A stretch of 64,000 bases of DNA from Myxococcota bacterium (GTDB lineage Bacteria > Myxococcota_A > SURF-8), in NCBI GenBank assembly GCA_963674735.2, contig CAXXQS010000002.1:448001-512000 (forward strand), written 5' to 3'. This document shows positions 52,445-56,519 of this stretch, piece by piece. The notes beneath the pieces were generated by a model that saw only the letters and a list, made by a program, of their open reading frames with translations, did not search any database and was not told the DNA's origin. Numbering within the stretch: the first letter of the stretch is position 1; every line of letters begins with the position of its first letter. The position numbers were made by a program, and so were the translations under genes.

Positions 52445-53227
52445 ATGAACGCGTTAACCTACAAACCCTGCCCGCCCCACGACCCGATGTTGCAACGTTT
52501 CCTCGCCCGCGACCCGCTTCGCCATCTCTATCTGTTGGGTGACACACAGCCCCCTTTCAGCCGCTACAGCCGCTTCTGGTTGGCCACCGACGGTGACGAC
52601 GCACGGGCTTGTGTTCTGTGTTTTCAAGACGGAGCGCGAGCGGCGTTGTTGGCGGCAGGCGATCCGCAAGCCACCACGGAGCTGTTCGCCCGCATCGAAA
52701 CGCCCCGGCAAGTGGTCTACCTGCTTGAAGAAACACACCTGGACACGCTCTTGCCAAGCTTCAACGTCGAGCGCGCCATGCCATTCAAACGTATGGGATA
52801 CGACGGGTCATCTCCCCGCCACGCCTCTGGAATTTCCTGGCGGCGTCTCACCCACGCGGATGTGGACCTCGCCGAGAAGCTGGCCCGCGATGTATCCGAG
52901 GTCGCGTTTACGCGGCGACAATTTCTGAACAACCCCTTTGTGGGCGCCTTCGACGAACAAAACCGGGTGATCGCCATGGCGGGGACGCACGTCTGTTCGC
53001 AACGGCTGGGGATTGCCGCCATCGGCAGTGTCGGCGTCCATCCACACCATCGACGGCAAGGGCTCGGACAAACGGTGATGCAGGCCATTGTTTCCGAATT
53101 GCATCCGCGCTTTGCCGTAATCGGCCTCAATGTCGCCGCCGACAACCGGGCGGCGCGCCGCCTGTACCGACGCCTCGGCTTTCACGACGCCTTTTCGTTT
53201 CTGGTCGGAACGGCCACGCAACGCTAG
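52445..53227 (+). CDS. GNAT-family acetyltransferase (FR47-like)
   Basis: IGSVGVHPHHRRQGLG, LNVAADNRAARRLYRRLGF. Confidence 0.88.
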   Translation: MNALTYKPCPPHDPMLQRFLARDPLRHLYLLGDTQPPFSRYSRFWLATDGDDARACVLCFQDGARAALLAAGDPQATTELFARIETPRQVVYLLEETHLDTLLPSFNVERAMPFKRMGYDGSSPRHASGISWRRLTHADVDLAEKLARDVSEVAFTRRQFLNNPFVGAFDEQNRVIAMAGTHVCSQRLGIAAIGSVGVHPHHRRQGLGQTVMQAIVSELHPRFAVIGLNVAADNRAARRLYRRLGFHDAFSFLVGTATQR

Positions 53228-53323: not shown

Positions 53324-53356
53324 TGCGGAGCATGACAGAGCCATGCTCCTGCTCAA
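53324..53356 (+). repeat. 33-bp direct repeat, copy 2
   Basis: Identical to 52136-52168. Confidence 0.92.
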
Positions 53357-53429: not shown

Positions 53430-53454
53430 CGATGGGCAACAAGTTGCCCATCCT
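53430..53454 (-). repeat. GTAG-type REP palindrome interrupted by IS110
   Basis: Joining the flanks gives CGATGGGCAACAAGTTGCCCATCCTAC (reverse complement GTAGGATGGGCAAC...TTGCCCATCG). Confidence 0.75.
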
Positions 53455-53468
53455 TGTATTATCCCTTT

Positions 53469-53675
53469 CAAGCGACTGTCATCGTTTGTGATGATAAGAT
53501 GAAACGACCTCCCGTAGCAAGCGGGAGGCCGTGGTGGGCGGCGAGATCGTCCCATCCTGGGGCCTGATGAGCCCGTTTTGTAGCCGGATCCGCCGTCCGT
53601 TTCGTCCGGGAAAACCCGAACAGTCGCAGGGGCCATTGTAATCGAAATGAGCCCGTATTGGCAAGGAAGGGTGCG
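53469..53675 (+). ncRNA. Predicted IS110 bridge RNA
   Basis: 5' hairpin plus two internal loops: target guides CCCATCCT (53551-58) and GTAG (53580-83); donor guides ACAGTCGC (53620-27) and CAAG (53662-65); ends approximate. Confidence 0.8.
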
Positions 53676-53677
53676 CC

Positions 53678-54613
53678 ATGAAGAAATGGATCGGGATCGA
53701 CGTCAGCAAAGCCGTTTTCGATGTCGCCGTCGACGGCGAAAGCACGTGCGTCCGCTACGCTTACACCAAAGCCGGCATGACACGCTTCGTCCGTTCGTTG
53801 AAGCGGATCGAGGTGGAGGGCGTCGTGATGGAAGCCACCGGCGGCTACGAACGGGAGCTGTGCAAACGTCTTCAGAAAGCGGGTTGGCCGGTGGCGGTGG
53901 TCAATCCCCGGCGCATCCGGGATTATGCCCGCGCCGTCGGCGTGATGGCGAAAACGGATCGACTCGATGCGGGCATCATCGCACGCTACGCAGCCGCCAT
54001 GCGTCCCGCACCGAACGAAACGCTCGGCGAAACCGCCCTCCTGTTAAAAGCCCTGTCTTCACGGAGGCGGCAGCTGGTCGCCATGCGCACGATGGAGAAA
54101 AACCGCACCGAACACGTGGGCGATCGGACGATCGGACAAAGCCTGCACCGCATTCTGGAGGTGATCGAACGGGAAATCGAGCGGCTGGATCGGGCCATCG
54201 CGGCGGCCATTGCATCGGATCGGGAGCGCAGCGACCGGGCCGCGCGGCTCCAAACGATGCCGGGCGTCGGCGCGTGCACGGCGAATCTTCTGGTGACGGA
54301 TCTGCCGGAGCTGGGGATCTACAACCGGCGGCAGATCGCGGCGTTGATCGGCGTGGCGCCCATGAATCGGGACAGCGGAACGTTTCGGGGTAAACGCATG
54401 ACCGGCGGCGGTCGTCATCGCCTGCGCACGGCGCTCTACATGCCGACGCTGGTGGCGATTCAACACAACCCGGTGATTCGCGGACACTACCAGCGGCTGG
54501 TCGGACGCGGCAAACCGAAGATGACGGCGGTGGTGGCCTGCATGCGAAAATTGGTCCTCATTCTCAACACGATGATGCGGAAAAACGAAGCCTGGAACCC
54601 GAATTTCGCTTGA
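53678..54613 (+). CDS. IS110 recombinase/transposase
   Basis: DEDD RuvC-like residues (GIDVSK, MEATG, KTDRLDA); PGVG; catalytic-Ser motif RDSG; ORF intact. Confidence 0.97.
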   Translation: MKKWIGIDVSKAVFDVAVDGESTCVRYAYTKAGMTRFVRSLKRIEVEGVVMEATGGYERELCKRLQKAGWPVAVVNPRRIRDYARAVGVMAKTDRLDAGIIARYAAAMRPAPNETLGETALLLKALSSRRRQLVAMRTMEKNRTEHVGDRTIGQSLHRILEVIEREIERLDRAIAAAIASDRERSDRAARLQTMPGVGACTANLLVTDLPELGIYNRRQIAALIGVAPMNRDSGTFRGKRMTGGGRHRLRTALYMPTLVAIQHNPVIRGHYQRLVGRGKPKMTAVVACMRKLVLILNTMMRKNEAWNPNFA

Positions 54614-54658
54614 CACCGATAACAGTCGCTACTTTTCTACCTTCTAGGGGTTTTGAAT

Positions 54659-54933: not shown

Positions 54934-55833
54934 CTACACCTCGACACCGAAGCGTTCGGCCAGGGTCAGAGCGGCCTGCATGCCGTCGCCCATGGCAATG
55001 GAGCCTTGACGATAGCGTCCCCGGCATTGGTCGCCGACCACGAAGAGGTTGGGACAGACGGTTTCCCCGCCGAAACCGTCACGCGCAAGTGGCACGCGGC
55101 CGTTATCGTCTACGACAACCGGCGGCTGGGGCACGCGCCCGATGTGAGGCACGATGAAACGATACGGGCCGGGATCGGGCAGGTCGTCGCGCCACACCCC
55201 GGCCTCGTCCACGCGCCAGACAGGGCGGCGGGAGATATGCTCGGCGATGTCCAGCCCACGCACGCGTTCCACGATGCGCGGCAAGGCGCGCAAGCGCTCA
55301 CGGCGACGCGCCAACGTAACCGACGCGCCCGCCAGACGCCAACGGGCCGCCTGATCGTAGGCCACATCCCCGGCACCGACCACCAGCACCTTGCCCGTCG
55401 GATCGGGCGGCAACTCGGGATCGGTCCACAGATAGGGCCGGACTGCCTCGGGGACATCCAGCTCTTTGGCTTGCAGCCCGCAGGCCAACACCACCGCCTC
55501 GGCATCGAAACGGCCCGGCTCACCGTGCAGGGCGAAGGGCTCCCCCGCCGCGCCCGCCACGATGCGATGGACCCGCACGCGCACCGGCACCAGGTTGAAG
55601 TCGCCCAGGTGCGCGGCCAACCGTTCGGCGATCACGCGCCCGGCCGTCCCGTTGGGAAAAGCGGGCCAGTTTTCGACCCGCCAGGCCATGCGGATGATAC
55701 CGCCCGGTTCGCCGGGCTCCAAAAGCAGCACCTGAATCCCCATGCGCACCAGTTGGACGGCGCAGGTGATGCCCGCCGGGCCCGCCCCCACGACCGCCAC
55801 TTGTGAAACAGGTTGACTCGCGCCGTGGGTCAT
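54934..55833 (-). CDS. FAD/NAD(P)-dependent oxidoreductase (thioredoxin reductase-like, no CxxC)
   Basis: VVGAGPAG, VENWPAFP, VVGAGDVA, LFVVGD; start MTHGAS overlaps the upstream stop. Confidence 0.8.
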   Translation of the reverse strand: MTHGASQPVSQVAVVGAGPAGITCAVQLVRMGIQVLLLEPGEPGGIIRMAWRVENWPAFPNGTAGRVIAERLAAHLGDFNLVPVRVRVHRIVAGAAGEPFALHGEPGRFDAEAVVLACGLQAKELDVPEAVRPYLWTDPELPPDPTGKVLVVGAGDVAYDQAARWRLAGASVTLARRRERLRALPRIVERVRGLDIAEHISRRPVWRVDEAGVWRDDLPDPGPYRFIVPHIGRVPQPPVVVDDNGRVPLARDGFGGETVCPNLFVVGDQCRGRYRQGSIAMGDGMQAALTLAERFGVEV

Positions 55834-56519
55834 GGCCAAAGCTCCTCCAGGGTTGTCGCGCCACCCACCCCATCGGCCATGGCGGCCAGCAATCGCACAT
55901 GCTGGGTTTCGGTCCAGGCGGCGCAGGCATCCGCCAGCACGACCGGGAAAAATCCCAGACACAAGGCGTGGCGCGCGGTGGTTTCCACGCATAGATGGCT
56001 GGTCACCCCGGCCAGCAGCAGCACGCGCACGGCGCGTTCGCGCAGCCACTCGCACAAATCCGTCCCCTCAAAGGCGGAGTAGGTGTCTTTGGTAAAAACG
56101 GGCGCAGCGAGTGGAGTCAACACGGATTCGAGCGCGGGATGCAGAGCGGCCAGAGGGTCGCTTTCCAAAAGACGCTTGTGCCAGATCGACAGAAAAGGAA
56201 AGGGATCGCTATCGGCGCGGTGGGCGTGTCGGGTGGCGGCGACGGAAATACCCGCCCGTGCGGCACGATGAACCGCCTCGCCCAGTCGCGGCGTCACGGC
56301 TTGCGCCACAGGTAGCGCCGCAGGCGAAAGCGGATCGAGAAAAAAGCGTTGAGCATCGATCACCAGCAAAGCCTGCGGTCCCTCCGGGATGGCGGGAAAC
56401 GCACGACCGCTCGCTCGACACACGGCCTCTAATTGGGTGTGGGCGACGGCGCTGATGTCGCGGTCCTTGAGATAGTCTTCGCGTTTGGGCGACATGGGCA
56501 TACCTGCTCGATTCGACAT
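55830..56519 (-). CDS. Isochorismatase-family cysteine hydrolase
   Basis: ALLVIDAQ, KDTYSAFEGTDL, GVTSHLCVETTAR; start uncertain (56495-56519). Confidence 0.88.
   Translation of the reverse strand: MSNRAGMPMSPKREDYLKDRDISAVAHTQLEAVCRASGRAFPAIPEGPQALLVIDAQRFFLDPLSPAALPVAQAVTPRLGEAVHRAARAGISVAATRHAHRADSDPFPFLSIWHKRLLESDPLAALHPALESVLTPLAAPVFTKDTYSAFEGTDLCEWLRERAVRVLLLAGVTSHLCVETTARHALCLGFFPVVLADACAAWTETQHVRLLAAMADGVGGATTLEELWP

Follow-up and report, generated by a model that had tools for sequence, protein, structure and literature searches.

The window analysed here, a 64,000-nt stretch of a Myxococcota genome, contains an IS110-type recombinase gene lying between two CT dinucleotides. The question raised by this locus is whether the gene belongs to a complete mobile element whose bridge RNA guides, read from its own sequence, agree with the sites at which it is found, and whether the element departs from the known IS621. 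We consider it very likely (probability about 0.9) that window positions 53455-54630 are an intact, recently mobile IS110-group insertion sequence with an IS621-like build.

Anatomy of the element and its bridge RNA

The element spans 1,176 bp and is bounded on each side by a CT core. Its parts, and the target that it abuts, are as follows.

53431-53452, plus strand: REP-like target palindrome (arms GATGGGCAAC and GTTGCCCATC, AA loop); its 3' arm is the left target
53453-53454, plus strand: CT core, left copy, read from the sequence and the same in all copies
53455-53677, plus strand: left non-coding end, 223 nt, encoding the bridge RNA (alignment with 29 relatives)
53457-53462, plus strand: -10 hexamer TATTAT of the putative split promoter; TATNNT is retained at the same position in relatives
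53678-54613, plus strand: recombinase gene, 311 aa (Pfam, PDB matches, invariant catalytic columns)
54610-54615, plus strand: -35 hexamer TTGACA of the putative split promoter; CTTGA(C/T) stands at the equivalent place in the right ends of most relatives
54614-54628, plus strand: right non-coding end, 15 nt, whose last letters are the left donor arm ACAGTCG (54622-54628)
54629-54630, plus strand: CT core, right copy, followed by the right target AC (54631-54632)

The left target CCCATC occupies 53447-53452 in the 3' arm of the palindrome, and the perfect 10-bp hairpin of the palindrome terminates at the core. The initial annotation had described a CT core at both ends and a donor ACAGTCG-CT-TGTAT. 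Both were confirmed: the core is present on each side, and the donor is made up of the finish of the right end and the start of the left end (TGTAT, 53455-53459). The neighbouring genes are convergent, with a GNAT acetyltransferase at 52445-53227 on the plus strand and a pyridine nucleotide-disulphide oxidoreductase at 54934-56055 on the minus strand. The GNAT gene is bracketed by two direct copies of a second hairpin repeat, GGAGCATGACAGAGCCATGCTCC (window 53327-53349 and about 52139), 1,188 nt apart; this repeat has nine exact copies in the genome.

The two promoter hexamers lie at opposite ends of the element. TTGACA overlaps the TGA stop codon (54611-54613), and joining of the ends would place 17 nt between TTGACA and TATTAT, 15 nt from the right side (54616-54630) and 2 nt from the left (53455-53456). 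A circle-junction promoter with these hexamers and this spacing had been claimed; the sequence agreed on both counts, and the hexamers recur in relatives. The putative junction promoter fits the sigma-70 pattern. At the integrated element, the target hairpin together with the T-rich element start (53431-53462), where TGGGCA of the left hairpin arm lies 18 nt before TATTAT, could affect read-through expression.

The open reading frame at 53678-54613 encodes a complete recombinase of 311 aa, as had been proposed. Pfam PF01548 (DEDD_Tnp_IS110, RuvC-like) was detected at residues 5-146 (E 3e-22, 79.5 bits against a cut-off of 29), and PF02371 (Transposase_20, the Tnp domain with the conserved serine) at residues 189-272 (E 8.3e-19). 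The best solved-structure matches in a phmmer search were the transposases of ISCro4 (E 3.2e-37) and IS621 (E 1.3e-34), both over residues 4-300. Residues D8, E52, D94, D97 and S233 aligned opposite D11, E60, D102, D105 and S241 of IS621, and S233-G234 aligned with S241-G242; the IS621 residue numbers equal the chain numbering minus 2 in the alignment, and the residue names are from the available text of Hiraizumi 2024. All five catalytic residues, as well as the S-G pair, were invariant across 24 relatives. The nearest other protein in a large protein collection was 64% identical. These results indicate that the DEDD and Ser residues are intact, in agreement with the earlier reading.

The left end carries three bridge RNA structures.

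53508-53528, plus strand: 5' stem-loop of the bridge RNA (MFE fold); by eye, a stem-loop of variable sequence is present here in most of 30 aligned sequences
53536-53598, plus strand: target-binding loop (helices 1 and 2, 8 pairs with compensatory change; guides match the flanks)
53615-53671, plus strand: donor-binding loop (helices 3 and 4; guides match the element's own ends)

By analogy with the IS621 bridge RNA, which starts at the equivalent element position 17, the RNA is predicted to begin at about 53469. The target loop consists of a basal stem (53536-53548 with 53587-53598) and a distal hairpin (53560-53574). Its left guide is TCCCATCCT (53550-53558), which contains CCCATCCT at 53551-53558, and its right guide is GTAG (53580-53583). 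The donor loop has a basal stem of CCC (53615-53617) with GGG (53669-53671) and a distal hairpin at 53630-53654; its left guide is ACAGTCGC (53620-53627) and its right guide is CAAG (53662-53665). A GGGGCC...GAGCCCGT(T/A)TTG hairpin lies inside both loops, at 53559-53580 and 53629-53660. The annotation of both loops therefore held as it had been given, since CCCATCCT and GTAG match the target CCCATC-CT-AC with flanks alike in all eight genomic copies, ACAGTCGC and CAAG match the element's own ends, and the hairpin is common to both loops.

We then compared 30 left ends by alignment. The donor guide ACAGTCG was invariant, as was most of CAAGG; the eighth letter of the left guide and the third letter of the right guide were kept in at least 90% of the sequences, and TGTAT at the element start was kept in most. 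The donor guides and element ends appear to be invariant among the aligned relatives, apart from letters kept in most sequences only. The 7 nt preceding CT in the first loop were variable. RNAalifold recovered the basal and distal helices of both loops, and 97.4% of the cells in 22 named pairs were paired, compared with 32-55% when the partners were slid by 1-3 columns. Ten pairs showed changes on both sides (compensatory), a number reached in 0 of 500 shuffles. The slid controls are the fairer ones, because related sequences can beat such shuffles without any structure. The conservation of the RNA structure, like the anatomy above, is a direct observation, and the relatives reveal which RNA positions are free to vary.

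An Rfam scan of the left end found no family at threshold. The only left-end match was below threshold, to sX15, an sRNA of Xanthomonadaceae, on the minus strand at window 53532-53664. It scored 23.5 bits, and a further sX15 match (L019 1042-1188, minus strand) scored 30.2 bits, against a gathering score of 55. The aligned blocks of sX15 cover the reverse complements of conserved bridge RNA motifs, and sX15 may be an antisense image of an IS110 bridge RNA. Among the papers listed by one literature search, none connected sX15 with IS110 bridge RNAs. In a Desulfobacteraceae MAG, two inverted copies of the Acido-Lenti-1 RNA motif (L027 481-525, minus, and 639-683, plus; 38.3 and 38.2 against a gathering score of 37) were observed 300-500 nt upstream of a related element.

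By analogy with IS621, the recombinase, consisting of a RuvC-like DEDD domain, a coiled coil and a Tnp domain with the catalytic serine, would act together with a left-end bridge RNA of about 200 nt. The first RNA loop would pair with the genomic target, its 5' side CCCATC-CT with the bottom strand and its 3' GTAG with the top-strand CT-AC. The second loop would pair likewise with the joined element ends through 5' ACAGTCG-C and 3' CAAG. Recombination at the CT core would place the element beside the 3' arm of the REP-like hairpin, and the circle would join the right-end -35 and the left-end -10 into a near-consensus sigma-70 promoter driving both the RNA and the gene. In this scheme, the strand pairing, the chemistry, the promoter function and the circle are carried over from the IS621 work.

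Insertion sites and mobility

The host genome comprises 5.26 Mb in three contigs. It contains eight copies of the element, each 100% identical over 1,178 nt, and the only PF01548 genes of the genome are those in these copies. All eight have the same 22-nt palindrome upstream, then the CT core and, on the far side, AC, in one orientation. The base after AC is T in seven copies and G in one, and most of the outer flanks are unrelated. By a genome-wide count, the palindrome is a member of a REP-like family. The initial annotation had proposed checking that other genomic copies sit in CCCATCCTAC, and this was found for all eight. This 10-mer has 17 further copies without an insertion, so that 8 of 25 sites are occupied. 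Sixteen of the empty sites lie in the repeat according to a context filter, and the seventeenth was assigned by eye to a degenerate copy. The insertion strand is always the one that reads hairpin and then CT-AC; on the opposite strand, different bases come after that arm. At 7 nt before the core, the guide has a U, compared with a G in all eight occupied flanks. This site specificity is likewise a direct observation.

Target depletion outside the repeats was also considered and was dropped. Among 200 10-mers of the same composition, the median count was 5 and 28% occurred twice or less; 10-mers of this kind are rare enough in general for a lack of target copies elsewhere than in the repeat to be unremarkable. 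A third repeat, containing GTCTCCGACGGGCTC, has 18 copies genome-wide and lies 20-60 nt to the right of three of the eight insertions (L004, L006 and L007).

A scan of species genomes yielded 79 related loci of 40-62% identity in MAGs titled Myxococcota, Zixibacteria, Desulfobacterales, Planctomycetota and others. Within the family and the order of the host, genomes contain elements of 54-62% identity. Guides were extracted by pattern from 43 of 80 insertions in the genome set and from 25 of 80 loci in the metagenome set, the rest being truncated or too divergent for the anchors. The left guide equalled the element's own left flank at all six core-adjacent positions in 35 of the 43 insertions, and at fewer positions in the other eight. 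For 27 distinct elements, the mean match to the own flank was 5.33, compared with 3.35 under the null, and 0 of 10,000 permutations reached it. When each distinct guide was represented by a single element (n = 14), the values were 5.21 and 2.86, again reached by 0 of 10,000 permutations. In the metagenome set, 14 of 18 distinct elements matched at 6/6 positions, and the mean was also reached by 0 of 10,000 permutations.

In 36 of 42 insertions, the dinucleotide following the core was as predicted by the right guide; these included four guides for sequences other than AC (GAC, TTA, GAG and CGG). The exceptions include three Desulfobacterales elements with the right guide GCAG at CTAC sites. The third base after the core matched the guide in only 18 of 42 insertions. 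Mismatches prevail at position 7 before the core and at position 3 after it, so that the effective target here is 6 + 2 + 2 nt. These results demonstrate that guide and flank covary among the relatives. The annotation had also credited the element with its own specificity. This was borne out in comparison with IS621 and did not hold within the clade, in which the target guide CCCATC was also read in 3 of the 27 distinct elements of the genome set and in 7 of the 18 of the metagenome set.

Of 46 distinct left flanks in the clade, 26 contained a perfect hairpin of 7-10 bp whose end lay 0-3 nt from the core, and several of the other flanks appeared by eye to be imperfect hairpins. To judge from these flanks, the target hairpins fit both the targeting of REP elements by IS621 and the rule reported for ISPpu10, in which a stem-loop is combined with base pairing, and are already known.

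Next, we looked for traces of activity in the host. The assembly contained no junction of right end to left end (RE-LE). Assembled contigs from the three listed sequencing runs of one study, none of them recorded as RNA, also contained no RE-to-LE joint, although such contigs drop rare forms. The only joint reported in the run contigs goes back from 53356 to 53300 and is explained by the two copies of the GGAGCATGACAGAGCCATGCTCC repeat lying 1,188 nt apart. In two runs, the word depth of a contig with the palindrome and element was 78.7 and 90.7, compared with 9.9 and 12.3 for the unique flank; depth is not copy number, and the ratio is in line with eight copies. In run X3, from a second sample, the element-to-flank depth ratio over window 53431-54633 was about 1.4-1.9 instead of 7-8. 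Depth is again not copy number, and the lower ratio might mean that the population in this sample has fewer copies.

The identity of the eight copies argues for recent copying. Copy-out, or excision of a single strand, with the donor copy staying where it was, is described in the available text of two preprints; by analogy, either would fit the retention of all copies. The same eight copies could instead be the frozen remains of an earlier burst, the element being intact in sequence and now silent or immobile in this host. In accord with this, the integrated copies are without the -35 box, having TGGGCA at that place with an 18-nt spacer and a weak 9/12 match, and the REP hairpin with the T-rich left end scores as terminator-like. 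According to the available text of the IS621 work, excision is prevented when a terminator lies upstream of the left end. However, the same work reports that IS621 was excised at a low level from integrated copies via read-through transcription. Moreover, there are no differences among the eight copies over 1,178 nt, which points to very recent copying, and all reading frames in them are open. We regard a silenced element as distinctly unlikely.

Spread or homogenisation of the copies by recombination or gene conversion between REP-flanked segments, in place of RNA-guided insertion, is more improbable still, to the point that we give it hardly any weight. Some copies do share longer flanks: the 60 nt upstream are common to L004 and L005, and the 54 nt downstream to L006 and L007. 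However, the CT cores mark the exact limits of the identity, and most of the flanks are unrelated. In addition, guide and flank change together in relatives belonging to other phyla, a pattern not expected from gene conversion. We therefore retain the reading of an intact and recently mobile insertion sequence.

An inverted copy of the donor near the predicted RNA start

One feature of the left end lies outside the IS621 plan.

53469-53479, plus strand: CAAGCGACTGT, an inverted copy of the 11 nt across the circle junction (11/11 match; 0 of 1000 shuffles as good)

The last 8 nt of this segment are complementary to the left donor guide. In the MFE fold of the whole left-end transcript, the left donor guide pairs with the RNA's own 5' end in a helix formed by these nucleotides (z = -3.4). 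Such pairing, if real, would be in competition with binding of the donor. In the two closest relatives, 10 of the 11 nt of the inverted copy are retained at the same offset; in most others they are not. Pairing of the leader with the donor guide at 8/8 positions, G-U allowed, was found in 5 of 30 elements of the genome set and in 0 of 25 of the metagenome set. Leader-donor guide pairing as a general feature was accordingly rejected, being confined to a few lineages, and there is weak support for the inverted copy as a lineage-restricted trait. In many relatives without the full inverted donor copy, an (A/G)GCGA motif is retained; by eye, it is found 14-20 nt from the start of the left end, close to where the RNA is expected to begin, in L101, L104, L105, L106, L108, L023, L028 and L029.

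We considered whether the inverted copy is a functional layer beyond IS621, as an RNA mask, a DNA operator or a fold of single-stranded donor DNA, and we find this doubtful. As RNA, the leader would mask the left donor guide, and the RNA would switch between a closed and an open form. This reading is slightly favoured, because three of the five elements with 8/8 pairing (L018, L054 and L025, with one, one and three G-U pairs) reach it only through G-U. As DNA, the copy may be a donor-like operator at the transcription start, to which the complex of recombinase and RNA binds and so shuts its own promoter. In a single-stranded circle, the inverted copy may fold back and rebuild a double-stranded donor site; the junction as single-stranded DNA folds at -15.2 kcal/mol, compared with -5.2 +/- 2.1 kcal/mol for shuffles. 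A word search of the main text of Durrant 2024 found no mention of masking, occlusion, sequestration or intramolecular pairing; other literature may describe such a leader feature.

Comparison with known systems

Work is under way to turn bridge recombinases into programmable tools that insert, excise or invert DNA, with natural orthologues as its raw material. The present element is compact (1,176 bp, a protein of 311 aa and a right end of 15 nt). The eight occupied and 17 empty sites provide a record of natural specificity in one genome, and together with the compact size and the set of relatives this makes it a well-documented candidate orthologue. A near-match search of a plasmid collection found no match to the element.

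Within the IS110 family as described in the available text of Durrant 2024, the layout is that of the IS110 group: the left end is long (223 nt) and the right end short (15 nt), long terminal inverted repeats are absent, and the 2-nt core CT is present on both sides in all eight copies. The IS1111 group, according to the same text, has a DEDD recombinase and sub-terminal inverted repeats of 7-17 bp. The present element resembles it in having a DEDD recombinase and a 9-11-bp inverted repeat between the right terminus and 53469-53479. However, this repeat includes the core itself and is not symmetrical around the junction. The IS1111 arrangement of a guide RNA in a long right end and a short left end was not found, the RNA features being in the left end here.

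The closest likeness in architecture is to IS621 of E. coli (PDB 8WT6 and others). According to the available text of Durrant 2024, IS621 produces a 177-nt RNA from its left end, its promoter is rebuilt across the core, its target is ATCAGGCCTAC in REP elements, and the two sides of each loop pair with the bottom and top strands. Its chemistry and catalytic residues (D11, E60, D102, D105 and S241) are given in the available text of Hiraizumi 2024. The IS621 element is printed in the supplement of Durrant 2024, along with its bridge RNA and a guide template. The README of that supplement, like PMC13396178, also contains the IS621 donor string given in the initial annotation. Both elements have the two Pfam domains, the five catalytic residues and the CT core. 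By eye, the first 14 nt from the core are identical, and the bridge RNAs are collinear, with the 5' stem-loop, target loop and donor loop in the same order. They also share the GTAG right target guide for a CT-AC target, a nearly identical right donor guide region, a 17-nt spacing between -35 and -10 hexamers contributed by opposite ends, ATA and TAT triplets on either side of the donor, and insertion into REP elements. The IS621 architecture that had been assigned to the element was thus upheld by the Pfam domains, PDB matches, end lengths, CT core, putative split sigma-70-like promoter and collinear bridge RNA.

The two elements differ in several respects. The IS621 protein is distant, at the phmmer E value given above, and its solved chain has 328 residues compared with 311 aa here. 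The left target is CCCATC here and ATCAGGCCTAC in natural IS621. The left donor arm and its guide read ACAGTCG here and ACAGTAT in IS621, so that two positions have changed together in arm and guide. The right end has 15 nt here and about 105 nt in IS621, and the inverted donor copy at the RNA start is absent from the printed IS621 left end.

ISCro4 (PDB 9T56), the best solved-structure match, also has its catalytic residues aligned with those of the present protein; it is distantly related and is likened by protein alone. ISPpu10 of Pseudomonas putida is likened by its description. All of its insertions lie in one intergenic repeat with a stem-loop 5' extension (bioRxiv 10.64898/2026.03.19.712850, available text), and the left target here is, similarly, the 3' arm of a 10-bp hairpin.

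The motif with the clade's donor guide ACAGTCGC occurs at least 372 times in the covariation input of Durrant 2024, and the subgroup with this guide is therefore already known. A 20-mer specific to the element was not found in the portion of the Durrant 2024 supplement that was searched. The element leaves knowledge of the mechanism unchanged and would not surprise a specialist. Both the element class and the donor-guide subgroup were known before, and we conclude that the element is a new example of the mechanism described in 2024, not a new mechanism.
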